A stretch of 59,466 nt of DNA from Candidatus Saganbacteria bacterium (GTDB taxonomy: Bacteria; Margulisbacteria; WOR-1; O2-12-FULL-45-9). The translations under genes were made by a program, and so were the position numbers. The stretch lies in assembly GCA_016219705.1 (NCBI GenBank), contig JACRKQ010000012.1, positions 1-59,466 on the forward strand, read 5' to 3'. Shown here piece by piece: positions 10,150 through 48,993 of the stretch. The notes beneath the pieces are model-generated. The model saw nothing but the letters and a program-made list of their open reading frames with translations. It was not told the origin of the DNA and made no database searches. Every line of letters starts with the position of its first letter. The first letter of the stretch is position 1.

Positions 10150-11169
10150 ATGATCATTATCATGCGGCCGGATGCGACAGAGCGGCAGGTTAATTCTATC
10201 GTTGATAAACTCAAAGCCCATGGCTTTGGCGTCCATCTCTCCAAAGGGGTGGAGCGGACCGTTATCGGCGCGATTGGCGACAAGAGCTCGATTGAACTGG
10301 AAAGCCTGCAGATGATGCCGGGGGTTTCCGAGATTGTCCCCATCAGAAAACCGTACAAACTTGTCAGTCGTGAATTCAAGAAAGAAGATACCATCGTTTC
10401 TCTCTCGGCCGAGGTTAAAGTAGGCGCCGGGCAAAAAATCCTGATCATTGCCGGACCCTGTTCGGTTGAAGGGGAAAAACAGATTATCGAAATTGCCGAA
10501 TTGGTAAAAGCCGCTGGGGCTAATGCTTTGCGGGGCGGGGCGTTCAAGCCCCGGACTTCCCCTTACGCCTTTCAAGGTTTAGGGGAGACCGGCCTTAAAT
10601 ATTTAGCCGCGGCCAGTAAAAAGACCGATTTGCCAATCGTCACCGAAGTTATGGACACGCGCGACGTCGCTCTCGTCGCCAAATATGCCGATATGCTGCA
10701 GGTTGGCGCGCGCAATATGCAAAACTTCAATTTGTTAAAAGAAGTCGGCAAGACTAAAAAACCGATTTTACTTAAAAGAGGGCCGGGTTCAACAATAAAA
10801 GATTTATTGATGTCGGCGGAATACATATTGTCGGAGGGGAATAATCAAGTTGTCTTGTGTGAACGGGGAATTAAAACCTTTGAAGATTCCACCCGTAACA
10901 CTCTTGATCTGAATGCTGTTCCGGTCATCAAAAAATGGTCGCATCTGCCGGTTGTAGTTGATCCCAGTCATGGGACAGGAGAGTGGGATCTGGTACCGGC
11001 GATGGCCAAAGCGGCGATTGCGGCGGGGGCGGATGGGCTGGCGATAGAAGTCCATCAGAAACCCGAAGCGGCTTTATCCGACGGCGCGCAATCATTGAAA
11101 CCGGATACTTTTGCCCAATTGATAAAGGAGCTGCGTCTGGTGGCGAAAGCGGTGGGGCGGGAGTTGTAA
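10150..11169 (+). CDS. aroF: DAHP synthase, type I-beta
   Basis: [34 protein letters not shown]. Confidence 0.95.
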
Positions 11170-11175
11170 GTTAGT

Positions 11176-11475
11176 ATGGCTAATAAATTGTATGGCAAAT
11201 TATTGGAAACCGTTACCGATGTTTCTGGCCGCAAAATAAATCTTTATCTAAATAGTTATAAACACATAATTAATAAGCATAATAAATTTGAGCTTTGGAT
11301 AAAACATTGGAAAAGAGTTATGGAAACTGTTAAACCCGATAAAAATGATTATTATGAGGATTTATTGGAAAATAGTGAAAAGATTCAAATACGAGTAATT
11401 AAGGAGAAAGGAGAGTATTTAATAAAAACAGCTATAATTGGCAAGGGGGTTATCACTAAATGGAAAAGAATATAG
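11176..11475 (+). CDS. Small AT-rich hypothetical protein, possible RNase toxin
   Basis: 99 aa, HI..KH motif and C-terminal IKTA; overlaps the next ORF; family is inferred. Confidence 0.55.
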   Translation: MANKLYGKLLETVTDVSGRKINLYLNSYKHIINKHNKFELWIKHWKRVMETVKPDKNDYYEDLLENSEKIQIRVIKEKGEYLIKTAIIGKGVITKWKRI

Positions 11476-11852
11476 TTTTTGAAATCGAGTATGATAAAGT
11501 ATTGGATGTGTTAAAGATATACGAGAAAAAACATAACCCTAAAAATATTGATTTTTTTCAATTTGAGAACCTGCCAATATATGTAATAGCTGAGAACGGC
11601 AATATAATTGGGATTGAATATTTTGAATATAAAAAACATGTGAAAGAATTCTATGGAGATAAAAAGAAAGAAATGGGGTTTAAAAATCAAAAACAAGCAG
11701 AGGAATTCCTACGAGGGAGTTTTTATTCTTTTTATAGGAATGAGTTTTCTGGCGGAAAAATAACCAGGATGGAAAACAGAAGAATAGAGATTAAAAATAC
11801 TTATTCTGAAAAGAAAATGCTGCGTAATTTAGAAGATTTAGTACCGGCTTAG
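11460..11852 (+). CDS. DUF2283-like small protein, possible antitoxin
   Basis: EYDKVLDVL.I and ENGNIIGIE resemble DUF2283. Confidence 0.5.
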   Translation: MEKNIVFEIEYDKVLDVLKIYEKKHNPKNIDFFQFENLPIYVIAENGNIIGIEYFEYKKHVKEFYGDKKKEMGFKNQKQAEEFLRGSFYSFYRNEFSGGKITRMENRRIEIKNTYSEKKMLRNLEDLVPA

Positions 11853-11948
11853 TTAATATTTTGCTAACAATCGTTTCGGATAGTAAGCAATGACTGTATA
11901 TTATGAGAAACGATAAAAAACCTTAATTGATAAAAATTGATATTCATT

Positions 11949-11975
11949 GAAATTTCTGATTTTAATCAAGGATAA
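11949..11975 (+). promoter_or_regulatory. Sigma28-like promoter motif GAAATTT-N12-AAGGATAA
   Basis: 6 nt upstream of ATG 11982; upstream region homologous to 13515-13573. Confidence 0.55.
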
Positions 11976-11981
11976 ACAATC

Positions 11982-12266
11982 ATGGCAATGCATCGTATTC
12001 CCAGACCTTTATTGAGACCGAGCGCTCATCCTCGCCTTCAGGCGAACTGGGCGATAAAAAATGCGCGCTTGCTAGCCCAAAGAAAAACACAAGCAGAAGA
12101 GAGACGCCAACTTTTAGAAAAGCTGGATGGCTCTAAACTGCACACGCTAGAGGCAGTTGCTGGAGCTGAATCAGCCTTTAATGAACTAAAAGTGAAAAAG
12201 TTGCTGCATTTAGCGGATTTTCAAATGGTTTTAGGTCTATATCAAATCAACGCCAGAAAAGTTTAG
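11982..12266 (+). pseudogene. Internally deleted paralog of the methyltransferase-like family
   Basis: N-terminus MAMHRIPRPLLR..HP resembles ORF 13574; last nine codons LYQINARKV identical to the ORF ending at 15270. Confidence 0.6.
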
Positions 12267-12279
12267 GCGTGTTTTCATA
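12236..12279 (+). repeat. 44-bp perfect direct repeat, copy 1
   Basis: tctatatcaaatcaacgccagaaaagtttaggcgtgttttcata, identical to 15240-15283. Confidence 0.95.
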
Positions 12280-12386
12280 GAAATATGAAAATTTAGCGTT
12301 TTTAAATCAAGCGGCGGAATCGCCGACCCCTATTTTGTGATTTGATTCTTTTAGTTTTTTGGGGTATTCTTATTTTTTAGCGGGAG

Positions 12387-12623
12387 GTGATGGCAATGAA
12401 AAAGATGGCTGAAAAATATGCCAGCATTATTCTTAAGGGCATAAAGACTCTGCCGGTTAGTGATGTGAAAGAACTTGCTAAATATGTACAATTTCTTTAT
12501 TTTAATCGAGCAGAAAGCAATTATGAACAGTTATTCGGCAGGGCGAAAAGCGCGGCCGAAAAAAAAGGGTATTCACTAAAAAACATCAACAAATTAATCA
12601 AGGCGGTCAGGAGTAATTCATAA
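12387..12623 (+). CDS. Putative antitoxin upstream of PIN toxin
   Basis: Small protein with GGGAGG RBS and C-terminal I.KLIKAVR, directly upstream of the PIN gene. Confidence 0.6.
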   Translation: MMAMKKMAEKYASIILKGIKTLPVSDVKELAKYVQFLYFNRAESNYEQLFGRAKSAAEKKGYSLKNINKLIKAVRSNS

Positions 12624-12630
12624 TAATCCT

Positions 12631-13047
12631 GTGATGCATCGATTAGTAATAGATACAAATATATTGATTTCAAGTTTGTGGGGCAACAAACCTCGGGAAT
12701 TGATTAACCTTTGGTTAAATGGCACTGTTCGAGTTTTAAGCACGCCGGCGATTATTGAAGAATATCTCTCAGTCTTGTCCCGCTTTGAATTAAGCCTGGA
12801 TGATATGCAGAAATGGACACGGTTATTTATTGAAAGGACAGAGAGAATAAGAGAGGAGACACTTGTAGATATTATAAAGGACGATCCGGCAGATAACAAG
12901 TTTTTATCTTGTGCTGTGGGTGGCAAGGCGGGTTATGTCGTTTCCGGCGATAAGCATCTTCTAAAAATAAAAAAATACAGTAATGTTGTCGTAATCAAAG
13001 TTTCAGATTTCCTTGGTATTTATCATCACGCTTTTGAAAGTTATTAA
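12631..13047 (+). CDS. PIN-domain toxin (PIN_3-like)
   Basis: VIDTNILIS, DPADNKFL.CA, VSGDKHLL. Confidence 0.9.
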   Translation: MMHRLVIDTNILISSLWGNKPRELINLWLNGTVRVLSTPAIIEEYLSVLSRFELSLDDMQKWTRLFIERTERIREETLVDIIKDDPADNKFLSCAVGGKAGYVVSGDKHLLKIKKYSNVVVIKVSDFLGIYHHAFESY

Positions 13048-13284
13048 TTCGGTTGCTAGCCCTGACAACCGTTTCCTATAGTATACAATAGCAGATCAAT
13101 AGGATTGACGAACGCAGCATTAAGCTGGATCTGGAGCCGCTGCTGGAAAATCAGAGTTTCATTAGAGATTTTTCCGGAAATATTAAGGCGGTTCTGCTCA
13201 AGAAACTTGATGAGAACTGGCGGTAGCTCTGGTCTGCTAAAACCGTCGGGCTGGAGCTTTAGGGTCCCCGAATCTTGCCAGCTT

Positions 13285-13495
13285 AAAAAATCTCAAATCT
13301 TATCTCAAATCTCTTTCCCGTATCATCTCGAAGATTTATCCCAAATTTTTTCTCAAATGGCACAAATTATTCCCTAATCATTATTTGATTTTGACGGTTT
13401 GAGAATAATTTTGGTAATTAGTGAATTAGATTGGAGATAGATTTATTGGTGATAATTTGGGAAGGTGATTAGTGATAAAATTTGGGATTTTATGG
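13285..13495. repeat. About 210-bp imperfect inverted-repeat element built from 12-mer TC(T/C)CAAAT units
   Basis: Units start at 13291, 13303, 13339 and 13351; complementary arm at about 13398-13492. Confidence 0.6.
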
Positions 13496-13540
13496 CACAC
13501 AGGCCAATACTCAAAAATTGATAAAAATTGATATTCATGT

Positions 13541-13567
13541 GAAATTTCTGATTTTTATCAGTGATAA
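13541..13567 (+). promoter_or_regulatory. Sigma28-like promoter motif GAAATTT-N12-AGTGATAA
   Basis: 6 nt upstream of ATG 13574. Confidence 0.6.
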
Positions 13568-13573
13568 ATAGGC

Positions 13574-14659
13574 ATGGCAATAGGTCGTATCCCAGGACAT
13601 TTGTTAAGACAAATAACACTCTCCCATCCTCATCAACGCGCCGGTTGGGCGGTACCATTAGAAGATCTTTGTCATGCGGGAGAGAGAAGCCGTCACGAAA
13701 AAATTCGGGAACTAGTTTTGCAGGATTGCCCAGAAGAGGCCAGCTTTTGGTCAGATACATATGATAGGAACGACACTTCTTTGGCAGAATATAGTTTACG
13801 AAGGGAACTACACAGGAAAAGAATGGTTATCGCTTTTCAAAAATTATCTTTGAGCAGTCATCTTGATTATCATGATCTTGCTCTACTTTATTATGCCCTG
13901 CAATCTGGCCGGTATTGTTTAGGAACGGGGGGTAATGCCGGAATTATTGTTACCGCACTGCGAGATTTAAAGGTGCGGCGCATTTCTTCTCCAAACATTT
14001 TAGTTTTGGGCTTTTCCTCCGTCTACTCATTAGAAAATCTTGCGGCGCTTCTTAAATTAGTCGGCTTTAAGAATGCCAATATTGTAGCGTTGAATATTGC
14101 TCTTGCTCCTTTGACTATGGCCAAAGAAGAATTTGGCGGGAAAATTTGCGGCTATCCTATAAGTTATGTGAAAGGCGACGCCAGAGAATTGCCCTTTGCC
14201 AACAGCTCCTTTGATTTGGTTGCCACGCATCTGTTTTTAGGACATTTCCCTAATAATGAAAAAAAATGTGTTTTGGAAGAGGCATACCGCGTGCTGCAAA
14301 AAGGCAGAGACTTTGTAGATGCAGAAATAGTTGTTGAGCAATGGTTCGATAAGGCTGAATATATAAAGACTTTTGCAGAGTTAGGAAAAAAATTTAAAGG
14401 AACAAGTAACGAACGAAAACGCGCCGGCGATTACTTAAAAAAATTTGCCTCTTTTTTCCCATTTTATCCCTATACCTTATCCCCTTATTTTAATCCAGGG
14501 TATCCTTATGAGCGATTATTTGATGTTTCGTGGTTTATTCGCATTAAAGTAGACTTAGATAAACAGGGCTTTGTTGCAGATCTTCACGGTTCAAATCCTC
14601 AAGCCTTATACCCTGGCTGCGAAGCCCGCATTTGCCAGATTCGGGCGCGGAAAGAGTGA
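13574..14659 (+). CDS. Class I SAM-dependent methyltransferase-like protein with orphan N-terminal region
   Basis: ILVLG, GDARELPF..SSFDLV, EAYRVL..G. Confidence 0.75.
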   Translation: MAIGRIPGHLLRQITLSHPHQRAGWAVPLEDLCHAGERSRHEKIRELVLQDCPEEASFWSDTYDRNDTSLAEYSLRRELHRKRMVIAFQKLSLSSHLDYHDLALLYYALQSGRYCLGTGGNAGIIVTALRDLKVRRISSPNILVLGFSSVYSLENLAALLKLVGFKNANIVALNIALAPLTMAKEEFGGKICGYPISYVKGDARELPFANSSFDLVATHLFLGHFPNNEKKCVLEEAYRVLQKGRDFVDAEIVVEQWFDKAEYIKTFAELGKKFKGTSNERKRAGDYLKKFASFFPFYPYTLSPYFNPGYPYERLFDVSWFIRIKVDLDKQGFVADLHGSNPQALYPGCEARICQIRARKE

Positions 14660-15270
14660 AAAAGAATGATTACAAATTTACAACCATATATTCCCTGGAA
14701 AATCTGGGGGCGATCCTATCTCTGGTTGGTTTTAAAAACGCCACAATTGTTGCCCTGGATATTTCTGCCTCTCCTCTGGAAAAAGCCAGGGCGCATTTCG
14801 GCCGGACCGTCTTTGGGTTTCCGGTTGAATACGTCCAGGGCGATGCCTTGGCGCTGCCCTTCGACAATGATAGTTTTGACCTCGTAACGACGCATCTTTT
14901 TATGACTCATATCGCGGATCAACGCAAGAATCAAGTACTGGCTGAGGCCGGCCGCGTTTTAAGACGCGACAGGGAGTTTATAGATGAAGAGATTGTTGTT
15001 CCACCCGGAACCGATCTGGACAAATATAAATGGTTTTATGCAACTTTAGCAGATGAATTTCCTGGAACACCAGAGCAGAAAGCTAAGGTCGCGCAATATA
15101 TGGTGGAACTTGGCGCTTATTCTGAATTTTATCCCTATGGAAGCGAGAAATCTCTCGTCGCAAGTATGAATAGTAACGGGTTTGAGGCGCACTTAGGCGG
15201 TCTTCAAGAAAAACGTCTTTATGTGAACGTCTGTGCCTCTCTATATCAAATCAACGCCAGAAAAGTTTAG
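14656..15270 (+). CDS. N-terminally truncated paralog of the preceding methyltransferase-like protein
   Basis: YSLENL..L.LVGFKNA.IVAL, GDALALPF..DSFDLV; lacks motif I; GTG overlaps the upstream TGA. Confidence 0.65.
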   Translation: MKKNDYKFTTIYSLENLGAILSLVGFKNATIVALDISASPLEKARAHFGRTVFGFPVEYVQGDALALPFDNDSFDLVTTHLFMTHIADQRKNQVLAEAGRVLRRDREFIDEEIVVPPGTDLDKYKWFYATLADEFPGTPEQKAKVAQYMVELGAYSEFYPYGSEKSLVASMNSNGFEAHLGGLQEKRLYVNVCASLYQINARKV

Positions 15271-15283
15271 GCGTGTTTTCATA
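15240..15283 (+). repeat. 44-bp perfect direct repeat, copy 2
   Basis: Identical to 12236-12279. Confidence 0.95.
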
Positions 15284-15349
15284 AAATATATTAATTCCGA
15301 TTTATCCGAAGATGATTTAAATGATTTCAGGCAATTTTTAAAATAGAGT

Positions 15350-15376
15350 GAAATTATTTGTAGAAGGGGTCGAGAA
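15350..15376 (+). promoter_or_regulatory. Sigma28-like promoter motif variant GAAATTA-N12-GTCGAGAA
   Basis: aaatagagtgaaatt (15341-15355) is identical to the reverse complement of 28776-28790. Confidence 0.5.
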
Positions 15377-15409
15377 ATGTTTGAGAGATGTTTGAGAGAT
15401 GTTTGAGAG
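15377..15409 (+). repeat. Tandem repeat (ATGTTTGAGAG)x3
   Basis: Three perfect 11-mers between the motif and ATG 15419. Confidence 0.95.
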
Positions 15410-15418
15410 AAAACAAAT

Positions 15419-17167
15419 ATGAACGTTAAAGTTGAGCGAAGTATTAGCCATTGGTTGGGACGATTTGGGAAATTGGCCTACACAAGTGGTCTTACGCGAG
15501 TCGGAAATGAAATTGCTCAACGTTACGGCCAAACAAGATCAAATACTCAAAATCCATTCAGAATTAGAGTAACAGAATCAGGTCTTCTACTAGATGACGG
15601 GCCGGCTCTAGTTTCCCCTCATAAAATCCTTGCTCGGCGCTTATGGCAGGTTGGAGTCGATTCAATCGTTGTTGATTCAGAAACAAAAGCACCTGATTTT
15701 AAGCATGTTTTTCGGCAACTGCTTTATCGGACACAGCGAGAGCTGGAAAACAGCAAGGTTATTAATTTTTCGTGGATGGATTCGCATAAACAAAAAGAAG
15801 TAGAAAGTGCTATTGCTCGATATCAGAGTGAGATGAGTACTGGCCAAAGTGTCTTTGCAAGACCCTGGGTAACTCCTGATAGATTGGCTTTCCTTGGAGA
15901 TAGCCTCTTTGCGAATACGCGGGCTTTCACCATTTTCCCAGAACAAAAGGATTCATTGGCCGGATTCCTGACCCGTTGCTTGCTTTCAGAGGAGATAAAA
16001 CCTGATTTTCCGAGCTATGGACGTCCTTACCCAATAGATGTTCCTTCGATCATGCGTGATGGCGTTGGATATAACGTCCTGCTCGCTTATTCTAAACCGA
16101 AACCGTCACCAATGCATGTGCCGGAGTCCACTTCCCGCAGCACGGTGTTTGCTGCTCCGGCGGCAACATATAAAGATATTTTCTGTGAGCCTGAAGAAAT
16201 TGAAAAAGATCGAACCACTTCGACCTACGTTCATTACATGCCGGAGAGTCTTGTCACGCAACTGATAAAATGGCTGGCGATGAAAAAAATGGGGCAACAG
16301 AGTGCTGTTTTTATTTGGGTGGTAAATGACTTTATGACTTTGAATGGTCAAGGGTTTGTAGCGGGAAGAACTCCGCTCCAAAGCAAGTTGGAAGATTTTG
16401 TCCAAACACTTCTCCGAGAAATCTACGCTGAAGATTCAACGGCTCGTCCCATATTTTTTCTAATTCCCGATATCCCCACTTTAACATTAAAACCAATCTA
16501 TCAAGAAGGAGATTGGAGCAATTATCAAAAGGGTGAGAAGATGAAGTATTTTCGCGATGGTCGGCCAATTCCCTGGGGAAGCTTTGCGATGCCCTTCATC
16601 CTTGATCTTGTGCGCCAGCAAGGGCAGCACAAGCCTGATGATGTGATCCTACCACAGGAAGTGCTCCGGACATATAGGGCGATTGAAAAATTTAATCTGT
16701 TTCTGCGAAGGCTCACCGAAGCTAATTCACGTGTTTCTGTCATTGATGTGAATGCCTTGCTGAGGGAGGCAGCACGAGGAGAACTTGGTGGAAAATTGTT
16801 CACAGAGGATGGCGTACATCCAACTCCTATTCTCCAGGCCTTAGCAGTTAATGTTATTATAACATCATTAAATGAGCAGTTAGGTTTGCAATATCCAACA
16901 ATAACCCCAGAACGACTTGCTCTCATTCGCAACGATTACTCGAAAGAGGCTCCCCCGTTAAATGAAATTCAGCAAGTCCGCCGTGCTCTTGTGAACAGGC
17001 TAATTGTCTATGCCTGTCGAGCAGGAGGATCCTTTATTCGTCGACTCCCCTGGCAACATACTAAAAAAATATTTCCTGCGGTGATAAGCTTTCTCTGGTG
17101 GACGAGTGTTTCTCGACGATTTCAAGCAATGTCAAAAAAGCTTGAGAATATTTTATTCAAACATTAA
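15419..17167 (+). CDS. SGNH/GDSL hydrolase-like protein with long orphan N-terminus
   Basis: LAFLGDSL (block I), VVNDF (block III-like), FTEDGVHPT (block V). Confidence 0.7.
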   Translation: MNVKVERSISHWLGRFGKLAYTSGLTRVGNEIAQRYGQTRSNTQNPFRIRVTESGLLLDDGPALVSPHKILARRLWQVGVDSIVVDSETKAPDFKHVFRQLLYRTQRELENSKVINFSWMDSHKQKEVESAIARYQSEMSTGQSVFARPWVTPDRLAFLGDSLFANTRAFTIFPEQKDSLAGFLTRCLLSEEIKPDFPSYGRPYPIDVPSIMRDGVGYNVLLAYSKPKPSPMHVPESTSRSTVFAAPAATYKDIFCEPEEIEKDRTTSTYVHYMPESLVTQLIKWLAMKKMGQQSAVFIWVVNDFMTLNGQGFVAGRTPLQSKLEDFVQTLLREIYAEDSTARPIFFLIPDIPTLTLKPIYQEGDWSNYQKGEKMKYFRDGRPIPWGSFAMPFILDLVRQQGQHKPDDVILPQEVLRTYRAIEKFNLFLRRLTEANSRVSVIDVNALLREAARGELGGKLFTEDGVHPTPILQALAVNVIITSLNEQLGLQYPTITPERLALIRNDYSKEAPPLNEIQQVRRALVNRLIVYACRAGGSFIRRLPWQHTKKIFPAVISFLWWTSVSRRFQAMSKKLENILFKH

Positions 17168-17275
17168 AAAATGGAGGCCATAAAAAATGACGGGAATAGT
17201 TAGATTTGGAGAGCTGAACTCGGTGGAGGATACAGCCAAATTATCATTGGACATATTTTTGGAGGTCTCAATACT

Positions 17276-18943
17276 ATGTTAAACAGACCTAGAGCAATAT
17301 CTAATCTGCGAACAAATATTCATCAAACAAGACGCTATGATGTTGCCATAATAGGCGCGGGCGTAGTTGGTTCTGCCGTTGCTGTTTCTTGCGCGCGTAG
17401 AGGCTGGTCTGTCCTCGTATTGGACAAAGGCGATCTGGCGGGAGAAACTTCATCAAACAGCACAGGCCTTCTTCACGGAGGGGCCCGATATGCGGAAAAG
17501 TTAGAATTTGGCATGGTGCTTTCAGCCATCCGTGGGCGCGAATATTTCAAGAAGGCTTTCCCAAATTTAGTTGTTGAAAGGCAATATTTTGTTCCAGCCT
17601 TTCAGGCAGGGAAGCATGGTTATCGAAAAATGCAGATCGGCCGATGGTTGTATGACCTGACTAAACTGTTTGGGTTGAGTTCCTTCCCTAGAGGCAGGAC
17701 GATAAGCGCCGCTGAGTTATCATCGGAAAACATTCCTTGGGCGCAAGATAAGGTCAGGGGCGGATCGTTTTTCTGGGATGGGCAAACTGACGATCATCGC
17801 TTAGCCTTAACGATGTTAATGATTGCGGCTCAACATCAGGCTGATATTATCAGCAGAATGGAATGCAGAGGCTTTGTTCATGATGGAGGCAGGGAAGGCG
17901 GCGTTAGTGGGATTGAGGCAAGAGATCTGCTAAGTGATGAGATATTTAACGTTAAAGCTGATGCGATTGTAAACGCTGCGGGGCCTTGGGCCCAAGATGT
18001 ATATGGATTAAATGATCCGCCAGCCTCCCAATTTCAAACGCTTGATGCAGGGTCTCATCTGATCGTACGCAATTTTTTTGGCCGGCCAATGAACTTTGGC
18101 TTTTTTGCGGAATTCAAAGATGGGCGATTGGTTTTTATCCTGCCGCATGGGCGCAATCTCCTTGTTGGCACGACTTCCGAAGGAAGAAGAGAATCGATCG
18201 ATAATGTACTTCCGGTTTTGCGGCATAACCAATATCTTCTTAACGGAGTGAACAATCTTTTCCCTTTTGCCGCTCTTAAGCCTGCCGATATAATATATGC
18301 GTATTCCGCGCACCGGGCTTTATTTAATGACACCAAGGCAAAGAACTCTGATGCTTTGTCCCGAGAAAATAAAATATTCATCTCCCCTCAAGGATTAATT
18401 ACTATTATCGGCGGGAAAATAACCACTGCGCCTTTGATCGGTGAAAAGGTGGCTAGCTTGGTCGCTAGAGGCAAGAATCTTCCCTTCGATCGCCTTTCAA
18501 CAAAGATGCCTTTTGAATCTTTGGACGAAACAGACAGACTTTTGTTTGTTAATGATAAAGCCCAGATTTTAATGGACAGATATCATATCGATCGAAGGCG
18601 ATGCGAACACCTGTTATTAAAATATGGAATGCGTGCGAGAGCTGTGCTTGATGCGGCGGAAGGTGACGAAAAATTATTACTTCCTTTAGAACCAGGGGGA
18701 ATGGAGGTTGGGGCGCAGGTAGTATATGCTGCCAGAAACGAAATGGCTCTTGGGGTAATCGATGTTCTGTCGCGAAGAATTAGATTGGAAAGAGAAGTTG
18801 GCAATGGCCTTAGCGCTTCATCAGTAGTTTCTCATATCTTGGCTAAAGAACTAGACTGGTCCAAATCGGAAACTGCCGCTCAAGCTGCGGCATATCATGA
18901 AAGGGTTAGGAAAGTGGCACAAGCCGTCGGGCGAGAAGTTTAA
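17276..18943 (+). CDS. glpD: FAD-dependent glycerol-3-phosphate dehydrogenase/oxidase (GlpD/GlpA family)
   Basis: IIGAGVVG, TSSNSTGLLHGGARY, DGQTDD.RL, NAAGPW, GGKITT, DVLSRR. Confidence 0.8.
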   Translation: MLNRPRAISNLRTNIHQTRRYDVAIIGAGVVGSAVAVSCARRGWSVLVLDKGDLAGETSSNSTGLLHGGARYAEKLEFGMVLSAIRGREYFKKAFPNLVVERQYFVPAFQAGKHGYRKMQIGRWLYDLTKLFGLSSFPRGRTISAAELSSENIPWAQDKVRGGSFFWDGQTDDHRLALTMLMIAAQHQADIISRMECRGFVHDGGREGGVSGIEARDLLSDEIFNVKADAIVNAAGPWAQDVYGLNDPPASQFQTLDAGSHLIVRNFFGRPMNFGFFAEFKDGRLVFILPHGRNLLVGTTSEGRRESIDNVLPVLRHNQYLLNGVNNLFPFAALKPADIIYAYSAHRALFNDTKAKNSDALSRENKIFISPQGLITIIGGKITTAPLIGEKVASLVARGKNLPFDRLSTKMPFESLDETDRLLFVNDKAQILMDRYHIDRRRCEHLLLKYGMRARAVLDAAEGDEKLLLPLEPGGMEVGAQVVYAARNEMALGVIDVLSRRIRLEREVGNGLSASSVVSHILAKELDWSKSETAAQAAAYHERVRKVAQAVGREV

Positions 18944-27052: not shown

Positions 27053-27092
27053 CCTGCTTACGCTCGGGTTAATCCTAGTGGGGGGAGGGGTA
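27047..27092 (+). repeat. Direct repeat copy 2
   Basis: tattagcctgcttacgctcgggttaatcct...; contains the stop codons of both flanking genes. Confidence 0.85.
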
Positions 27093-33145: not shown

Positions 33146-33455
33146 CCAATTTGGGATGATAAGCAATGAACTTGGTATATCACAAAATATTTATAACGTT
33201 TTATTGATAACATTGCTGATATTTTGCGGAATACTCCTTATCATTTCTCTAATTACCCGTTCAATAGGAAAGTTTATGGGGATGTTAATTTTAGCGTTTA
33301 TCTCCTATTGGATTTCAAGCGGAACTCTTATCGCCGTGTTGCTCTGCGCAATTTCAGGCTTTTTTTATCTTGATAATTTGGGAGGCTTTCTTAGTGAGAA
33401 AAGCTTAGGCAAGAAAAAAAATAATTCTGATATTAAGCAGGGGCCGAATTGCTAA
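33138..33455 (+). CDS. Small membrane hypothetical protein (start uncertain)
   Basis: Three hydrophobic segments; sits between purN and purH. Confidence 0.5.
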   Translation: MLSQFGMISNELGISQNIYNVLLITLLIFCGILLIISLITRSIGKFMGMLILAFISYWISSGTLIAVLLCAISGFFYLDNLGGFLSEKSLGKKKNNSDIKQGPNC

Positions 33456-36343: not shown

Positions 36344-36407
36344 AAACTGATCTCTGACCTCTTCCTGGTGTTTTTTAGGAGCAAAAAGTTTATTGGAGGT
36401 GTTAATT

Positions 36408-36647
36408 TTGGAGAAAAAAAATGATGCATTTGCAAAGTTGATGAATAGGTTATGTCGAACTTCCAAGTATGTCGGAAAGCATGTGGCGGTAATTAAGGGG
36501 AATATTGTTGTGGCTGTTTCTAAAAGTCAGTTTGCAGTCTATAAAATGGCTAAAAAGATATATCCCAAAGAAACTCTGGGCATATATTATGTGCCAACAG
36601 CCAAGGAGGCTTTGACGGCTTTATGCAATATCCTTACGCGGAAATAA
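36408..36647 (+). CDS. DUF5678-like small protein
   Basis: KY.GKHVAV...IVV...A.K.YP; GGAGGT RBS before TTG. Confidence 0.6.
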   Translation: MEKKNDAFAKLMNRLCRTSKYVGKHVAVIKGNIVVAVSKSQFAVYKMAKKIYPKETLGIYYVPTAKEALTALCNILTRK

Positions 36648-37021
36648 AGCCGGAAATATTTGCTCCGGTTGTGGAGCTGCAAATTTTTGGTGAAGAATGG
36701 GTTTCCTTTAATTTATTTGTTGATACTGGGGCAAGTTTTACCATTTTTCATTCTGAAACCGCACGCCTTTTAGGGATAAATTATAGGAAAGGCGCACTAG
36801 TTTTTCTCACAGTTGGCGATGGCAGGCAAATTCCTGTGTATCGACATAAGTTAAAAGTTCTGTTTTCTGGCCAGGAATTTAAGGCGATAATTGGTTTTTC
36901 TTCAAGATTAGGAGTTGGCTTTCATCTTCTCGGTCGGGAAGATTTTTTTGAGAATTTCAGAATTTGTTTTAACGATCGGGATAAAGTGCTGGAAACGACT
37001 TTTTTGGAAAGCGGAAAATAA
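36623..37021 (+). CDS. Retropepsin-like aspartyl protease
   Basis: VDTGAS and LLGREDFF motifs. Confidence 0.8.
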   Translation: MQYPYAEIKPEIFAPVVELQIFGEEWVSFNLFVDTGASFTIFHSETARLLGINYRKGALVFLTVGDGRQIPVYRHKLKVLFSGQEFKAIIGFSSRLGVGFHLLGREDFFENFRICFNDRDKVLETTFLESGK

Positions 37022-37024
37022 ACA

Positions 37025-38503
<1,479 letters not shown>

Positions 38504-38528
38504 GCAACCTTGATTTTAGGAGGGAAGC

Positions 38529-39074
38529 ATGAAGAAAATTATCAGTTTGATGTTTTGTCTCTTAATTGTTTTTGCTTTTTGTGCTGATGCTGCCCAAAAA
38601 ACAGTTTTACCACCTAAGCTAAAAATAACTAAAACAAAGAATATTGTCATTCGTCCTGCTCCAGTTCCTTTAGCTGTGAAATCCAAATTAGCTCCGGTTA
38701 AAAGGCTGGTCCTTGAGGCGGGGTTTGCCGGTGGCGCCGGTTTACTTGATTTGGGATATTTATTCCCGCTGTCGGGGAAACCATTTGATCTGAAAGTGAA
38801 CGGGGGGATTGGTTTTGGCAACGGATACAATCTCTGGCTTTTACAAGGGCAATTACGGCATGCTTTTAATTCTGAAAGTTTTGGCGGGATAAGTTTGGAT
38901 TGGGCAAATTATTCGGAAACCGTGAGGAACCTTATTGGTCTTTCTGGCAATGTTGCCAAAGGGGGCAACTTTGGCGTTGGGATCTTTACCGGCAGGATTT
39001 TTGATAAATACAATGTCAAAATCGGTTATAGTTCTGTTTTAGGCGTGAATGTCTCTGTCGGTCTGATGTTTTAG
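38529..39074 (+). CDS. Exported hypothetical protein, small beta-barrel-like
   Basis: Signal peptide, Gly/aromatic strands, C-terminal F. Confidence 0.6.
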   Translation: MKKIISLMFCLLIVFAFCADAAQKTVLPPKLKITKTKNIVIRPAPVPLAVKSKLAPVKRLVLEAGFAGGAGLLDLGYLFPLSGKPFDLKVNGGIGFGNGYNLWLLQGQLRHAFNSESFGGISLDWANYSETVRNLIGLSGNVAKGGNFGVGIFTGRIFDKYNVKIGYSSVLGVNVSVGLMF

Positions 39075-39079: not shown

Positions 39080-39133
39080 TTACCGTCTTATAATTTTACC
39101 AGAGGTTAAGTCAATTACTTGGGGACTTTTTTT
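39080..39133 (-). repeat. Diverged duplicate of the tsaC 3' end
   Basis: 48 of 54 bp match 39689-39742; reads KSPQVIDLTSGKIIRR*. Confidence 0.9.
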
Positions 39134-39175: not shown

Positions 39176-39418
39176 ATGAACGCAATAGATGTTAAATACG
39201 CGAAGAAAAAATTAGGACAACTTTTGGCAGGAGTGAATGAGTCTCACGAGCCGGTTTATATAGTCGGTAAAAAATCTTCGGCTGTGATGATTAGCGAAGA
39301 AGACTGGAGCGCGATAGAAGAAACCCTCTGTTTATTGTCTATGCCTGGAATGAGACAGTCCATTATTAAAGGATTAAAGACACCTATTGAAAAATGCCTT
39401 AAAAAATTGGATTGGTAA
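39176..39418 (+). CDS. yefM: Phd/YefM antitoxin
   Basis: V.ESHEPV.I.GK...AV.ISEEDW.AI.ETL.LLS.PGM. Confidence 0.9.
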   Translation: MNAIDVKYAKKKLGQLLAGVNESHEPVYIVGKKSSAVMISEEDWSAIEETLCLLSMPGMRQSIIKGLKTPIEKCLKKLDW

Positions 39419-39678
39419 TGTATAAGATTGTTTATACCAAGCAGGCGCAAAAAGACGCCAAAAGGCTTGCTGTTTCCGGATTAAAAGAGAAGACGCAGAA
39501 GCTATTAAAATTATTGGAAGAAAACCCATTTCGCAATCCGCCTGCTTTTGAAAAATTAATGGGGGATTTAAGCGGGGCGTGTTCCCGCAGGATTAATATC
39601 CAGCATAGGCTTGTTTACCAGATTTATGAAAAATTAAAAATTATAAAGATTATTAGAATGTGGTCTCACTACGAATAG
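39418..39678 (+). CDS. yoeB: Txe/YoeB toxin
   Basis: NPP.FEKL.GDL.G..SRRINIQHRLVY, MWSHYE. Confidence 0.93.
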   Translation: MYKIVYTKQAQKDAKRLAVSGLKEKTQKLLKLLEENPFRNPPAFEKLMGDLSGACSRRINIQHRLVYQIYEKLKIIKIIRMWSHYE

Positions 39679-39688
39679 TAATCCCCAC

Positions 39689-40228
39689 TTACCGTCTTAT
39701 AATTTTACCAGTGATTAAGTTAATCACTTGGGAACTTTTCTTTAGTTTAACCCGGCCGCCAAGGACATAATCAACTGCAAGCATTTTAAGTTGCAGGGAA
39801 CTAGAATTTAAAATTGGTGGTTTGCCAGCGATGTTAGCGGAAGTTGCCGCAATCGGGCCGCAAAGTTTGATTAATTGCAAAATAGTTTTATGCGCGGGAA
39901 TTCTAAGCCCGACAGTTTCCAAACCGCCGGTGATTAATTTGGAGACTTTTTGGGTTTTGGGGACAATCAAAGTATAGGGTCCGGGCCACTTTTTTCTGGC
40001 AAAAGCTAAATCTTTATCATTAAAAATGCCCAATTCCTGTGCTTGCTCAATTGTGCCGATTAAAATTTGTAAAGGTTTACTTCTTGGACGTTTTTTTATT
40101 TTAAATATTCGCCTGATAGCTTGAGGCTGGTTCAAGCAAGCGCCGATGCCAAAAACGGTGTCAGTAGGAAAGGCGATAATGCCGCCGTTAAGGATAATTT
40201 TAACCGCCTGTCTGATTTTATTTTTCAT
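39689..40228 (-). CDS. tsaC: Threonylcarbamoyl-AMP synthase (YrdC/Sua5)
   Basis: FPTDTVFGI, K.RP..KPL, WPGPYT, GLRIP, TSAN. Confidence 0.92.
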   Translation of the reverse strand: MKNKIRQAVKIILNGGIIAFPTDTVFGIGACLNQPQAIRRIFKIKKRPRSKPLQILIGTIEQAQELGIFNDKDLAFARKKWPGPYTLIVPKTQKVSKLITGGLETVGLRIPAHKTILQLIKLCGPIAATSANIAGKPPILNSSSLQLKMLAVDYVLGGRVKLKKSSQVINLITGKIIRR

Positions 40229-43019: not shown

Positions 43020-43023
43020 TCTG

Positions 43024-43050: not shown

Positions 43051-43060
43051 TTAGTATGCC

Positions 43061-43306: not shown

Positions 43307-43335
43307 CTCCGGTCTTTTTATGTTATAATTTATCT

Positions 43336-46431: not shown

Positions 46432-46703
46432 ATTTAGAAGATAAACTATTCCTTGATCGTTATGTAGTCGATGAGATCCCGCATTTAAGGATTATCAATC
46501 TTGATAAATGCGCGATTTGTAAAAAACAGCAATGCCTTTACACCTGCCCGGCGCAGTGTTACAAGCTGGAAGAGGGACGGGTCGTTGTTTCTTACGAAGG
46601 CTGTTTGGAATGCGGAACCTGCCGGATCATTTGCGACGAATATAAAAATATCGAGTGGAAATATCCCCGAGGAGGCTTTGGTATCTGTTATAAGTACGGC
46701 TAA
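46428..46703 (+). CDS. fixX: Ferredoxin-like FixX
   Basis: CPA.CY, GCLECGTCR..C, W.YPRGG.G. Confidence 0.93.
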   Translation: MNLEDKLFLDRYVVDEIPHLRIINLDKCAICKKQQCLYTCPAQCYKLEEGRVVVSYEGCLECGTCRIICDEYKNIEWKYPRGGFGICYKYG

Positions 46704-46709
46704 TGTAAA

Positions 46710-47009
46710 ATGCCACTCTACGATTATAAATGTGAAAAATGCGGGCACATCTTTGAGGTGATGCAAAAGATCACCGCAGAGCCGCTAAAGTTTTGCCCTG
46801 AATGCAAAGGGCCGATCAAGCGTTTAATATCCGCAGTGGGGATCATTTTTAAGGGATCAGGATTTCATGTGACTGATTATGCGAACAAGGCTCCAGAAAA
46901 GAAGAGTGCCGGAAAACCAGGGGAAAGCGAAAAAACAGATAAACCAGCAACCGAGACAAAAACCGAAACCAAACCGGAGACTAAACCTTCAACGACCAAA
47001 AATTCTTAA
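46710..47009 (+). CDS. FmdB-family zinc ribbon protein
   Basis: MP.Y.Y.C..CGH.FE, CP.C, FKGSGF..TDY. Confidence 0.9.
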   Translation: MPLYDYKCEKCGHIFEVMQKITAEPLKFCPECKGPIKRLISAVGIIFKGSGFHVTDYANKAPEKKSAGKPGESEKTDKPATETKTETKPETKPSTTKNS

Positions 47010-47778
47010 TTAATGCTTGTGTTATCGTATCACGATTGATAACAGTTTTATTTACCTTAGTTATTGGTTGAATGTCTAGCAAAGAATTAGTGATAAAAAC
47101 TTCATCAGCTTGCAAAAGTTCCCTAACTTTAAATTTATTTTCAATTACTTTATGGCCCAAACGTCTGGCCAACTTAATAACATAGGCTCGAATGACGCCG
47201 GGGAGAATTGGCAGGGGGGTGGGCGGGGTGATGATTGCGCCGCGCTTAACGATAAAAATGTTGCTTTTTGTTCCTTCAGTTACAAAACCATCAGAAGCAA
47301 CTTGAATTACTTCTCCGGCATCGGACAGAGCTCCTTCAGTCCCAATTAACTGATTGTTCAGATAATTTAACGTCTTTAAACGACTAGTCGGCAATTCTGG
47401 CTTTATCCAGCGGCTAATAACAATTTTATTCTTGTTTCTTCCTGATTTCGGTAATGGACGAACAAAGATAATAAGGCTTGGCCTTTCAGCTCCGCGGGTG
47501 ATAATTATTTTGATGTAGGCATTGGGTAGGCGGCTTTGGGTTATCAGCTGATCAACAATTATTTTCAAAGCGTCAATTTTAACCGGCGGTTTAATTTTTA
47601 GTATTTTTAATCCATGCCAAAGCCTGTGAAGATGCTCTGGCAGGAGAAAAGGTTTTCCGTCAAAGGTTCGCAAGCTTTCAAAACAGCCGTCACCGTAGAG
47701 AAATCCTCGGTCGAGGATTGAGATTTTAGCGTCTGCCAGGGTAGAAATTTTTCCGTTAACGTATGCTAGCTCTTTCAT
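46981..47778 (-). CDS. Class IV aminotransferase, probably ADC lyase (PabC) from context
   Basis: DRGFLYGDG.FE, KTLNYL, EG...NIF, LPGVIR, ADEVF.TNS. Confidence 0.85.
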   Translation of the reverse strand: MKELAYVNGKISTLADAKISILDRGFLYGDGCFESLRTFDGKPFLLPEHLHRLWHGLKILKIKPPVKIDALKIIVDQLITQSRLPNAYIKIIITRGAERPSLIIFVRPLPKSGRNKNKIVISRWIKPELPTSRLKTLNYLNNQLIGTEGALSDAGEVIQVASDGFVTEGTKSNIFIVKRGAIITPPTPLPILPGVIRAYVIKLARRLGHKVIENKFKVRELLQADEVFITNSLLDIQPITKVNKTVINRDTITQALIKNFWSLKV

Positions 47779-48467
47779 GCTGTTTGATTATTGATCAATT
47801 CTATTATTTTCTCTTCTCCAAGCTCTTTTAGGCCTTTGTTTATTTTATCCTGCCATTTTTTGGGGATAGAGAAAAAAGCCTTTCGAAGTTCGATTTCTTC
47901 TTTTTTTTCAATAAGAGCTTCAATAACGTTTATGGCAGCGGCAAAATCCTTTTCTTTCTTTTCAGAATTTCTTCTTCTTTGGGCAATAATCAGTTTATGA
48001 AGTGCGAAATTTGCCGGATGGGGCAAAGTAACAGTTATGTTGTCGATAATCACCTTGATGGTCTTCATCGTTAAAAAATTTAAAAATCTTAAAGCAGTAG
48101 CATTAACACCTAAATTTGGGAAAGGAATCGGCTCATCAAAACCCTTCCCTTTTTCGATAACCAGAAATTCAACAATCAAATCAGGATGCTGAAGTATAAT
48201 ATAACCTTTTGATCCTTTAAAACCTAAGACAAAACCGAGACTTTTTAGCAATGAAGGAATATCAGCCTTATATTTAAAGCTTGAAGGATTTGGCAATAAA
48301 AAATCTAAATCCCTTGTTTTAATAGTTGATTGAAATTCAATGCCGGAGAAATATTGTTTATAAAAAGGCAAACACCAACTGCCAATGAGAATAATCTTAT
48401 CAAGCAATTTACGCTTTGCAAACTGTTTTAAGACATTAAAGCAAAGATCAGACTGACTCTTTTCCAC
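47775..48467 (-). CDS. Nucleotidyltransferase-fold protein (GSU2403-like), putative toxin
   Basis: LIGSW, T.DLDF, P.P..FALHKL, K.EKD. Confidence 0.7.
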   Translation of the reverse strand: MEKSQSDLCFNVLKQFAKRKLLDKIILIGSWCLPFYKQYFSGIEFQSTIKTRDLDFLLPNPSSFKYKADIPSLLKSLGFVLGFKGSKGYIILQHPDLIVEFLVIEKGKGFDEPIPFPNLGVNATALRFLNFLTMKTIKVIIDNITVTLPHPANFALHKLIIAQRRRNSEKKEKDFAAAINVIEALIEKKEEIELRKAFFSIPKKWQDKINKGLKELGEEKIIELINNQTA

Positions 48468-48765
48468 GTAAAGTACTCCTGAGAAATCTGATTTGTTTCT
48501 TCACTTGGGATAATAATTTTCTGTATTTTGCGCGATATGCTTTAGCCTGATTGTATTTATCGAGCGCTTCTGTTGATACCTTTCCTTTATAAATAGATTT
48601 TACTTTGCCTTTTTCTCTCAAAATCAAATAGAAATAAAAGCGTCCTCTCCTCTGCTTTTTTACCAGACTCCCCTTTGGCAGGTTTGCTAATTCTCTTTCA
48701 TAACTTTTTTTCATTCTTTCTGAATTTTCCAACTCTTCTTTTAAGACCCCTTTAATTACTCCCAT
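48448..48765 (-). CDS. Small basic protein, putative DNA-binding antitoxin
   Basis: LPKGSL..K....YFYL..R..GKV...Y.G; overlaps the downstream gene. Confidence 0.65.
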   Translation of the reverse strand: MGVIKGVLKEELENSERMKKSYERELANLPKGSLVKKQRRGRFYFYLILREKGKVKSIYKGKVSTEALDKYNQAKAYRAKYRKLLSQVKKQIRFLRSTLRGKESV

Positions 48766-48783
48766 TATTACACCCCAAATATT

Positions 48784-48878
48784 GTTGCCATACAATCATT
48801 GTTTTATTATATTTTGTATGACAACAGATGTCAAAAGTTGCCATACAAAAGTGTTTAAATGGCAGATTGTATGACAAC
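48784..48878. promoter_or_regulatory. Two tandem palindromic operator-like sites GTTGCCATACAA-N18-TTGTATGACAAC
   Basis: Copies at 48784-48825 and 48837-48878, identical arms, 53-bp period. Confidence 0.8.
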
Positions 48879-48993
48879 AGCTCTTTCATGTGATTTGATT
48901 ATTTTTTATGCAATCCATAGTTGAAATTGAGGATATGCGTTTTTATCATAAAAATCTAAATCTTTTAAAAGTAAGCAGGAGCAATTTTCATCT

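Follow-up and report, generated by a model that had tools for sequence, protein, structure and literature searches.

Small low-GC cassettes between duplicated gene ends in a Candidatus Saganbacteria genome: candidates for recombinase-free insertion with long target duplication

The entry of restriction-modification units into genomes by insertion with long target duplication was reportedly described by Nobusato et al. 2000 (Gene 259:99). The term 'insertion with long target duplication' is used for such units by Furuta, Abe and Kobayashi (2010), and according to the portions of that paper available to us the inserts are smaller than 20 kb, carry no mobility genes and are flanked by direct repeats of >30 bp. 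These repeats differ in both length and sequence, often include the start or stop of a gene and are known mostly from naturally competent species (PMC2853133). The same portions present the mechanism as not established, with DNA breakage by the restriction enzyme being suggested (PMC2853133). The present study deals with a similar arrangement in a stretch of 59.5 kb (hereafter the window, meaning the whole stretch of DNA that was analyzed), which is contig C68 of the Candidatus Saganbacteria genome G000. A preliminary description of the window, made from its letters alone, had noticed accessory modules lying between diverged copies of the end of a neighboring gene.

In the field of natural transformation, homology-facilitated illegitimate recombination was reportedly described by de Vries and Wackernagel 2002, Prudhomme et al. 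2002 and Meier and Wackernagel 2003. As outlined in the accessible parts of two further papers, a RecA-dependent anchor on one side is here combined with an illegitimate joint on the other side in transformable hosts (PMC2884548, PMC5361080). The element e14 and phage 21 insert in icd of Escherichia coli and are associated with the relic icdC (PMC13626634, available in part; Hill et al., 1989, cited there). Displacement arrays have been reported by Kirchberger et al. (2017) for loci of type VI secretion system (T6SS) effector-immunity genes, Rhs and contact-dependent inhibition (CDI) (PMC5361080, in its accessible part). A recent insertion of MNT-HEPN modules into operons was described by Makarova et al. 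(2009), with no flanking duplication being mentioned in the available sections of that article (PMC2701414). A literature search, which included the accessible text of PMC2701414, PMC2654758 and PMC3874152, yielded no published report of toxin-antitoxin cargo with duplicated gene ends.

The sites in G000 may be cases of recombinase-free insertion with long target duplication, in which 27–123 nucleotides (nt) of a gene end or gene start stand on both sides of small low-GC cassettes and in which the diverged pairs came about via the gene end of a relative; we put the probability of this reading at roughly 0.5. G000 is a metagenome bin of 1.47 Mb in 94 contigs and is 87% complete. A Pfam scan of 65 open reading frames (ORFs) of the window revealed a backbone of housekeeping genes (prs, hom, chorismate mutase, aroF, hflX, type IV pilus, proS, purF/M/N/H, tsaC, cysS, serS, etfBA, pabABC and murC), which is broken by low-GC stretches at 11–19, 32–34, 36–41 and 47–49 kb. 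The 40–64 relatives used for comparison all belong to other genera than G000, and a metagenome scan with CysS found no close relative, the best match having 55% amino acid identity over the full length (65% on a partial contig).

When G000 was compared with itself, as proposed in the preliminary description, 96 direct local pairs and 14 inverted ones were obtained (minimum length 24 nt, maximum distance 20 kb). After removal of tandem paralogues and multi-copy repeats, the isolated pairs (25–150 nt, 0.3–12 kb apart) numbered 33 direct vs. 3 inverted (22.5 vs. 2.0 per Mb); in unrelated metagenome contigs (1.02 Mb) there were 3.9 direct and 2.0 inverted isolated pairs per Mb. The signature is hence found throughout the genome. 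In an additional end scan, the query was taken from every ORF of at least 100 amino acids (aa), either as its final 48 nt or as its initial 30 nt with 24 nt upstream, and a copy was looked for up to 8 kb beyond the gene. A score of at least 15 was reached by 29 of 1249 3′ ends and by 17 of 1225 5′ ends, compared to one of each with reversed queries, and these matches include some tandem paralogues as well as two pairs counted from both sides. The density of sites amounts to about 25–30 in 1.47 Mb.

A close look at 22 pairs revealed bracketed inserts of 0.45–7.7 kb. Among 24 pairs listed, the GC content of the inserts is 0.32–0.45, that of the flanks 0.40–0.50, with the insert being lower in 21. 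The repeats are 30, 38, 54 and 30 nt long in the window and 27–123 nt elsewhere in the genome, and they vary from site to site. Most of the repeats have a border which coincides with the live gene's stop (or start) codon or follows it by a few bases, and the two copies have the stop in register. Four pairs are 100% identical (27, 31, 32, and 55 nt) and others 96–98% (123, 109, 80, 51, and 36 nt); several repeats are located near contig ends. At pstB, the far copy holds the bases directly upstream of phoU. As judged from the reading frames, far copies often appear to be still in use and would thus not be 'scars'.

The inserts are gains, because aroF and hflX overlap in nearly all relatives that hold both and because a small ORF of the window (ORF105) is missing from all relatives at its locus. 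The convergent genes aroF and hflX overlap by 4–74 nt in 19 of 22 relatives, the remaining three having a gap of 8 nt (one) or of 183 and 509 nt (two). In G000, the stop codon of the second aroF copy lies 38 nt inside hflX, exactly as in four relatives, which implies that the 7.7-kb stretch between the two aroF ends is an insertion and that the second copy represents the ancestral overlap. The duplicated segment is single in relatives at this junction, the sole one with usable comparators (from other genera). ORF105 is absent from the purN-purH loci of 28 of 28 relatives, in 24 of which purN and purH are adjacent. ORF105 is therefore an insertion, despite its flanking repeat of 16 nt being at chance level: the best ungapped genome match of this repeat lies elsewhere, and the end scan gave 11 vs. 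9 and 9.5 vs. 8.5 for query and control.

The two aroF copies at site 1 match in 22 of 30 bases and both are terminated by a stop codon (VAKAVGREL vs. VAQAVGREV). In an ungapped search of both strands of the 1.47-Mb genome the local partner was the top match of the 30-mer, with the runner-up at 21. In the end scan, which uses local alignment of DNA, the score of 10.5 was not separated from the 10.0 of the reversed-query control, so that the homology rests on the protein tail and on synteny. The longest exact run is only 5 nt. Six of the eight differences fall on third codon positions of aroF and none on second positions, which, in the frame worked out from the sequence, are the third positions of hflX. 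The second copy also provides the last 10 codons and the stop of the final ORF of the island (17276-18943). The island further contains small ORFs, a PIN gene, two SAM-methyltransferase-like genes, a 582-aa ORF without family and a glycerol-3-phosphate-dehydrogenase-like gene; the methyltransferase-like genes match Methyltransf_11/25 (small-molecule type) and no DNA methyltransferase family.

The other three bracketed junctions of the window are those of a yfhO-like gene, tsaC and a pabC-like gene (Table 1). The yfhO-like copies match in 35 of 38 bases (runner-up genome-wide 25), with an end-scan score of 17.5 vs. 10 in the control, or 25.5 if scored from the side of the convergent response-regulator gene. 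All three differences in their core are synonymous, and the longest exact run is 14 nt. The tsaC copies match in 48 of 54 bases, no other match in the genome reaching 37 or more, and score 35.5 vs. 9. At the pabC-like gene, 23 of 30 bases match (runner-up 21) and the score is 17.5 vs. 9.5; the NTP_transf_8 gene here has its last residues and its stop within the near copy, this stop overlapping the pabC start. Comparisons with relatives were less informative at these three junctions than at aroF/hflX. Of 29 yfhO loci, only 2 have proS ~700 nt downstream, which provides no empty-site comparator, and a search for the response regulator at E ≤ 1e-30, which is too strict a threshold, gave a match in G000 only. 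The synteny at tsaC and pabC is not conserved in relatives of the same family, rendering the ancestral state unreadable.

These results bear on several statements of the preliminary description. The repeats which it had placed at the yfhO-like gene (25703/27047), at tsaC (39689/39080) and at the 5′ end of the pabC-like gene (47768/48879) were all recovered, and its view that differences at aroF and yfhO lie mainly at third codon positions holds as well. The aroF repeat (11140/18914) stands as the best genome match and by synteny, though with a DNA score that is by itself at control level. The repeat which it had weakly suggested at purN (33136/33447) did not survive either the match search or the end scan. 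Its range of 25–54 bp for the four clear sites, with sequences differing between sites, compares with 30–54 nt in the present analysis. The interpretation of the old gene ends as scars has to be abandoned at aroF and at yfhO, where copy 2 serves as the coding 3′ end of a convergent neighbor, namely hflX and the response-regulator gene, respectively. Its proposed check for empty sites in sister genomes gave a single overlapping end at aroF/hflX in 19 of 22 relatives of other genera, and no comparator at tsaC, pabC and yfhO.

Table 1. Features of the repeat-bracketed junctions in the window and cargo at other junctions of G000.
Feature	Position or junction	Strand	Basis and remarks
aroF live 3′ end, copy 1 (site 1)	11140..11169	+	DAHP synthase gene 10150-11169, Pfam DAHP_synth_1
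aroF/hflX island, 7.7 kb, low GC	11170..18905	.	GC 0.33–0.46 vs. ~0.49 in flanks; Pfam and NCBIfam matches
Relic aroF end, copy 2	18914..18943	+	minus strand is coding 3′ end of hflX (18906-20006)
yfhO-like live 3′ region, copy 1 (site 2)	25703..25740	+	gene 23433-25763, Pfam YfhO
Site 2 cassette: AAA_14 ATPase, 411 aa	25817..27052	+	Pfam AAA_14; GC 0.40 vs. 0.46 in flanks
Relic yfhO-like end, copy 2	27047..27084	+	overlaps last 27 nt of convergent response-regulator gene (27058-28140, minus)
ORF105, low-GC insert between purN and purH (site 5)	33138..33455	+	absent from relatives' loci
Accessory stack at site-3 junction	36393..39074	+	DUF5678 and aspartyl-protease-like pair, beta-propeller repeat protein, 181-aa ORF; Pfam
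Relic tsaC 3′ end, copy 1 (site 3)	39080..39133	-	intergenic, 5 nt past stop of ORF 38529-39074
Site 3 cassette: Phd/YefM-YoeB toxin-antitoxin	39176..39678	+	Pfam PhdYeFM_antitox, YoeB_toxin/ParE_toxin; GC 0.37
tsaC live 3′ end, copy 2	39689..39742	-	gene 39689-40237, Pfam Sua5_yciO_yrdC
pabC-like live start and upstream bases, copy 1 (site 4)	47766..47795	-	gene 46981-47778, Pfam Aminotran_4
Site 4 cassette: 115-aa ORF (no family), then NTP_transf_8 nucleotidyltransferase	47775..48795	-	Pfam; GC 0.33 vs. 0.45 in flanks
Palindromic unit, 43–44 nt, two copies upstream of site-4 cassette	48783..48880	.	repeat search
Relic pabC start (ATG, 3 codons, ~18 upstream bases), copy 2	48877..48906	-	repeat match to copy 1
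DUF2283 pair	mdh start		Pfam
MNT	def end		Pfam
AAA_14-DUF4143 ATPases	after aldehyde-dehydrogenase-like gene; glmS end; after yfhO		Pfam
AbiEii and partner	bracketed insert		Pfam
HEPN and FGE-sulfatase-like gene	bracketed insert		Pfam
DUF5678 pairs	bracketed inserts		Pfam
SNF2 and 350-aa ORF	between transglutaminase-like gene and nadE		Pfam
Fic	after carB		Pfam
PIN	ROK kinase end		Pfam
Zeta	between pyrD and pyrG		Pfam
Gene pair	between pstB and phoU		Pfam scan
MNT	beside duplicated candidate tRNA 3′ part		31-nt pair, tRNA read by eye

To characterize the divergence between the copies, we took the reading frame of each live gene and counted the differing codons. Over 14 pairs, 32, 27 and 75 differences fall on codon positions 1, 2 and 3, respectively, and 53 synonymous and 44 non-synonymous codons were counted vs. 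20 and 87 expected from random change. A clean set of eight pairs with stops in register (C11, def, aldehyde dehydrogenase-like, thioredoxin-like, glmS, pstB, tsaC and aroF) exhibited 41 synonymous and 19 non-synonymous codons, with 11.5 and 46.3 expected by chance. Among further sites from a sensitive scan, C24 shows no differences, while C56, C75, C80 and C91 contribute four synonymous and nine non-synonymous codons. Decay in place was simulated with a neutral relic and a live copy accepting synonymous changes only, at equal mutation rates and with 2000 runs per set. For sets of 8, 12 and 18 pairs the simulated means were 18.5, 22.7 and 37.0 synonymous codons, compared to 41, 45 and 57 observed, values which were reached in 0 of 2000 runs each. 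Because this synonymous excess goes beyond simulated decay, we conclude that in many pairs most of the divergence probably predates the joining of the copies.

The glmS pair illustrates this pattern, as it differs in nine synonymous codons and one non-synonymous codon, with the copies being identical in 56 of 66 positions and having a longest exact run of 16 nt. Compared to glmS of 29 other genera, in which 44–53 of the 66 positions are identical and the 21-residue protein tail is nearly invariant, the live copy and the relic are closer to each other than to any of the 29. The comparison did not polarize the native copy, since synonymous sites are saturated between genera. The ATPase family on the glmS side has a patchy distribution (11 of 65 genomes including G000, at 1e-30), and no donor for it was identified in this search, the best match being 70% identical in G034.

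Independent insertions at these junctions are seen in other genomes. In G015, which belongs to the same family as G000, a two-gene cassette follows aroF and is succeeded by a second aroF end of at least 47 nt. In G019, a member of another family, a 568-nt insert lies between two aroF ends having 24 exact bases in common, the duplication being 34 nt long. In G041, from a third family, glmS is followed by two ORFs and then by a second glmS end of 107 nt with 90.7% identity, all 10 differences being at third positions (read by eye). When 400-kb samples were searched in 20-kb pieces, G016 yielded seven direct and no inverted pairs and G013 two direct pairs and one inverted; G000, cut in the same way, yielded 33 direct and three inverted pairs over 1.45 Mb. 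As it recurs in relatives, the signature belongs to the lineage, to varying degrees. The G019 insert consists of one small ORF framed by short GC-rich inverted repeats. This ORF presumably resembles the DUF559/Vsr-like endonuclease family, in which case this hotspot would have taken up a selfish nuclease gene.

The cargo was scanned with Pfam for the ORFs of the window and for 71 ORFs at 20 other regions. Overall it comprises PIN, MNT, HEPN, AbiEii, Zeta, Fic, Phd/YoeB, DUF5678 with Asp-protease, AAA_14-DUF4143 and SNF2 (Table 1), and no restriction and modification genes were found among these ORFs. None of 22 modules has terminal inverted repeats (mean score 6.8 vs. 7.2 in the control), and there is no DNA similarity among these modules. 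Pfam and targeted family searches are also in line with the earlier observation that no intact integrase or transposase accompanies the repeats. Phage_integrase had no match in the window, and its only two matches in the genome are XerC and XerD on other contigs, both above their cut-offs. Models of integron integrases scored far below their cut-offs on XerC/XerD, and the repeats stem from the neighboring genes and are different at each site; attC folding was not searched for. Four transposase families were absent from the window and the modules, three of them giving few matches on other contigs and Cas12f1-like_TNB none. Of six serine-recombinase matches in G000, one is a full gene next to a repeat-flanked cassette on C63. 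The window itself holds no recombinase sequence other than a truncated piece of a serine recombinase (944-1279), which lies outside the repeat sites.

How the diverged pairs could have arisen may be pictured as follows. A cassette would enter, probably by natural transformation, joined to a relative's copy of the gene end, and RecA would pair this incoming copy with the resident gene. The pairing could act as a one-sided homology anchor, as in homology-facilitated illegitimate recombination, or as a Campbell-type crossover of a small circle. The incoming copy would turn into the live gene end and the resident copy would stay on the far side. Selection would then keep only products with both neighbors intact, which would account for repeat borders at stop or start codons and for the survival of the resident copy where it codes for a convergent end (hflX, response regulator) or holds the ribosome-binding region of phoU. 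From the arrangement of the genes, insertions between overlapping genes would have to double the overlap, as they could persist only in this form. Near-identical pairs might stem from the same event with a donor of the same population or from a true in-place duplication. Three routes yield a layout of gene, copy, cassette, copy and neighbor, namely a one-sided anchor plus illegitimate joint, a small-circle crossover and a target duplication. The synonymous bias favors the anchor or circle route at many sites, and the near-identical pairs fit all three. As a further and in our view unlikely extension, a cassette together with the end of a core gene might form a mobile unit, with the gene end as a portable attachment site read by the host RecA in place of an integrase. 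Recombination with the resident gene would then restore that gene, turn its old end into a relic and generate the direct repeats, which might allow later release of the unit.

With respect to uptake of DNA, the preliminary description had pointed to the type IV pilus genes of the window and proposed a search for comEC and dprA. ComEC and RecA are present in G000, and the pilus genes are indeed there, whereas DprA was not found in this 87% complete genome, and neither was MutS. In the relatives, DprA exceeds the family cut-off in 37 of 40 genomes (38 at E ≤ 0.001). A loss of mismatch repair behind recombination of diverged DNA was considered and rejected, as 36 of 40 relatives have MutS and as the incompleteness of G000 probably accounts for the missing match there.

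Several observations weigh against an origin of the diverged pairs by recombination with DNA of relatives. No synonymous bias exists at tsaC (2:4, synonymous to non-synonymous), mdh (0:2), C80 (1:5) and C75 (0:2). The clean set was picked for intact stops, which favors less decayed relics, and the simulation treated all base changes as equal and relics as free of any other constraint. Exact runs as short as 5 nt at aroF and 14–16 nt at yfhO and glmS make the copies a poor RecA substrate for each other, and the MutS-dependent barrier to diverged DNA is probably intact in the lineage. The missing DprA and MutS of G000 count on the same side. Neither a donor genome nor an empty-site allele nor a joint of the circular or deletion type appeared in a metagenome scan or among the joints listed, and in four groundwater runs no joint skipping the cassette was among those listed for sites 3–5. 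In addition, the ATPase gene of G034 lies ~25 kb from glmS, so that cassette and gene end were not seen traveling together. At the ROK (121/123) and nadE (55/55) pairs, the live gene reads into the cassette and has acquired a new tail, with the native end being lost. Judged from their sequences, these two pairs look like plain in-place target duplications. What remains of the preliminary description's proposal, an integrase-free gain by homology-anchored recombination with a diverged allele, is the gain itself, the lack of an accompanying integrase or transposase, the presence of ComEC, RecA and pilus genes and the two-allele signature (41 vs. 19 codons, 0 of 2000 decay runs), with tsaC and the near-identical pairs departing from the latter and with donor, empty allele and joint missing from the data searched.

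An alternative is that all copies were identical at birth, as in a pure in-place long target duplication via staggered breaks on two chromosome copies or via template switching. Selection in an overlap-rich genome would then have kept insertions which duplicate the common segment, and the differences would have arisen later. This would fit well with the four pairs at 100% identity, the others at 96–98% and those differing mostly non-synonymously, as well as with the new tails at ROK and nadE, which would be unexpected if a whole foreign gene end had arrived. It would also fit with three independent aroF/hflX insertions duplicating about the overlap or more (30 nt in G000, 34 nt in G019, >47 nt in G015) and with published pairs, which in the available portions of that study are near-identical and both match the empty target (PMC2853133). 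Nevertheless, the synonymous excess is too large for a neutral relic in each of the three simulated sets, the second positions of aroF (third positions of hflX) show no differences although they should drift in a freed relic, and all 10 differences in the glmS pair of G041 are at third positions. An exclusively in-place origin thus appears rather unlikely to us. Large serine recombinases use a 2-bp crossover core and are not known to leave long direct repeats. This is one of the points against integrative elements which have decayed or are mobilized in trans, and whose attL and attR at gene ends would be the repeats seen here, the integrase being lost or acting from elsewhere. Like e14 and phage 21 in icd, these elements would have carried a replacement gene end, and the addiction cassettes would have stayed because they are hard to delete. 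Such elements would explain why one 31-nt pair reads as a candidate tRNA 3′ part, a classic integrase target, and why exact cores of 24–55 nt exist in some pairs; e14 likewise leaves the icdC relic and conservative differences, according to the accessible part of the source (PMC13626634). The six serine-recombinase matches, including the full gene beside the C63 cassette and the truncated fragment at 944-1279, would also be in line with such elements. However, there are >25 distinct targets at 3′ and 5′ ends, XerC and XerD are the only tyrosine recombinases, the cassettes have no common DNA, and ~25 single-operon cassettes of 0.45–2.8 kb would all need the same minimal decay with both ends kept, which renders this origin improbable. 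A very improbable cause is chance similarity or an assembly artifact of a mixed population. It could be invoked for purN with its chance-level repeat and for aroF, which is not significant on DNA alone, and the bin does consist of 94 contigs with several repeats near contig ends. Yet direct pairs outnumber inverted ones by 33 to 3, reversed queries gave one match each, collapsed k-mers cannot yield diverged copies, and the same signature is seen in other assemblies including a one-contig genome. Moreover, sites 3 and 4 are not an artifact of one assembler, as they lie in an interval (37271-49400) that is spanned with 0 differences by Logan contigs from run X1, a candidate for the source sample. 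Contigs from four groundwater runs of one study over 29401-49400 exhibit sites 3–5 only in occupied form, a result that speaks for presence only.

Some junctions may have received more than one insertion. At 49473-49493 (minus strand), overlapping the pabB stop, a short frame starts like pabC (ATG, similar codons 2–3, AACGG). This stretch may be a third, older and weak relic of the pabC start, and if it is a relic, two successive insertions would have taken place between pabB and pabC. Near tsaC, the spacing between purN and tsaC in G011 is only ~2.9 kb, which equals the length of purH plus ORF392; in G000, accessory genes take up 3.3 kb of the interval from ORF392 to tsaC. The accessory stack, around which the analysis revealed no duplicate, would seem to consist of stacked insertions. 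Repeated insertion at one junction is suggested by these 3.3 kb of accessory genes, none of which fit in G011, and by the third pabC-like start.

Further features of the modules and their surroundings were noticed. The palindromic units upstream of the site-4 cassette are likely an operator/promoter region, as read from their sequence. A 94-aa ORF of the aroF island combines parts of both methyltransferase-like genes: its start resembles that of the 361-aa gene (83% identity over 95 nt), and its end is the same as that of the 212-aa gene (100% identity over 44 nt). The segments concerned are 11925-12282, 13516-13610 and 15240-15283, with the PIN gene and a small ORF (12631-13377) between the composite and the full genes; the composite can be read as a nested bracket or as a cassette frame with common 5′ and 3′ ends. 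The 492-aa accessory protein near site 3 has an ACA/AAC codon run at 37132-37254 and six tandem repeats of 141–144 nt (37508-38539) with beta-propeller family matches. At 33522-33617, PurH of 28 of 28 relatives aligns only from residue 33 of the G000 ORF onward (35 or 56 in two), and the true purH start probably lies ~30 codons past the first in-frame start. Outside the window, positions 1-11200 of contig C8 hold an array of six AAA_14(-DUF4143) ATPase genes with intergenic repeats of 109 nt at 96%, 51 nt at 98% and 35 nt at 89% identity, and a weak integrase-core (rve) fragment below the family cut-off lies at 897-992. An AT-rich intergenic repeat with internal inverted symmetry (32410-32535 and 58419-58597) has a depth of 616 vs. 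~60 nearby, and its ~10x depth together with the many contigs stopping there indicates that the community contains multiple copies of this element. A 7-base unit of the AATGACA type forms arrays in or beside genes at 2055-2098 and 52355-52389 and, on contig C28 of G000, at 13205-13244 and 20551-20590. Finally, a single frame at 800-2509 starts with N-terminal sequence of a large serine recombinase and continues into a MiaB-type methylthiotransferase. In the recombinase part, residues ~48–215 match Resolvase and the beginning of the Recombinase domain, the best matches being CcrB-like, and the MiaB part begins at residue 220 and covers model positions 1–367 of 437. It looks like a recombinase remnant in front of miaB.

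How toxin-antitoxin and defence genes move without a mobility gene is an old open point, for which ~25–30 natural examples are provided here. Their allele-like divergence points to recombination with DNA of relatives over a cut-and-fill reaction. They also illustrate how a genome with overlapping convergent genes can accept DNA, as the overlap is doubled and each copy serves one gene. If a cassette and a gene end read by RecA do form a mobile unit, insertion with long target duplication would acquire a mechanism, and the uptake of defence genes at the overlapping borders of gene-dense, streamlined genomes would be accounted for. Should the allele-like divergence prove a valid clue, any naturally transformable model organism would lend itself to a direct test of the process.

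The comparison with known systems sets these sites apart from DNA transposons and insertion sequences, as the modules have no inverted termini, no fixed short duplication and no transposase. The sites resemble e14, which, according to what is accessible of its description, brings its own version of a gene end and leaves the resident 3′ end at its far side, with conservative differences; recombination between the two copies removes the insert (PMC13626634). Unlike e14, which has its own site-specific recombination and a single target, G000 has >25 targets and no integrase in or next to the modules. The exact runs are 24–55 nt in some pairs and at most 5, 14 and 16 nt at aroF, yfhO and glmS, respectively, with later decay being possible. 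Displacement arrays, as presented in the available sections, are similar in that a module joined to a conserved upstream gene part displaces the resident end, which becomes an orphan downstream, and in that events stack, to which the stacking at pabB-pabC and at ORF392-tsaC is comparable (PMC5361080). There, toxin tips and immunity genes of one system are concerned, whereas the ends of unrelated housekeeping genes and unrelated cargo are involved here. Homology-facilitated illegitimate recombination, in the accessible accounts of it, likewise joins foreign DNA to a homologous stretch with no enzyme encoded by the element; it results in replacement or trapping of foreign DNA, unlike the duplicate of a recipient segment which is kept in G000 (PMC2884548, PMC5361080). 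The register and the synonymous-biased divergence of the pairs are compatible with a product of this process. The closest resemblance is to insertion with long target duplication, here taken from the portions of that study available to us (PMC2853133). Common to both are small addiction-type units, direct repeats which vary between sites and have a single copy at the empty site (in G000 as judged from aroF/hflX), an intact neighbor gene, the absence of transposase and integrase and an often lower GC content. The repeats in G000 fall within the published range of >30 bp, with sites 1 and 4 right at the 30-bp limit, and the inserts are <20 kb and without mobility genes, the exception being the serine recombinase beside the C63 cassette. 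In contrast to the published units, the cargo consists of toxin-antitoxin and defence genes and stand-alone AAA_14-DUF4143 ATPases rather than R and M genes, the density is high, and many pairs are diverged with synonymous bias where the published ones are near-identical. The suggested breakage by a restriction enzyme cannot apply to the RNA-targeting toxins found here. The kind of event is thus already published for restriction-modification units, and what is new in G000 is the cargo, the density and the allele-like divergence of the copies.

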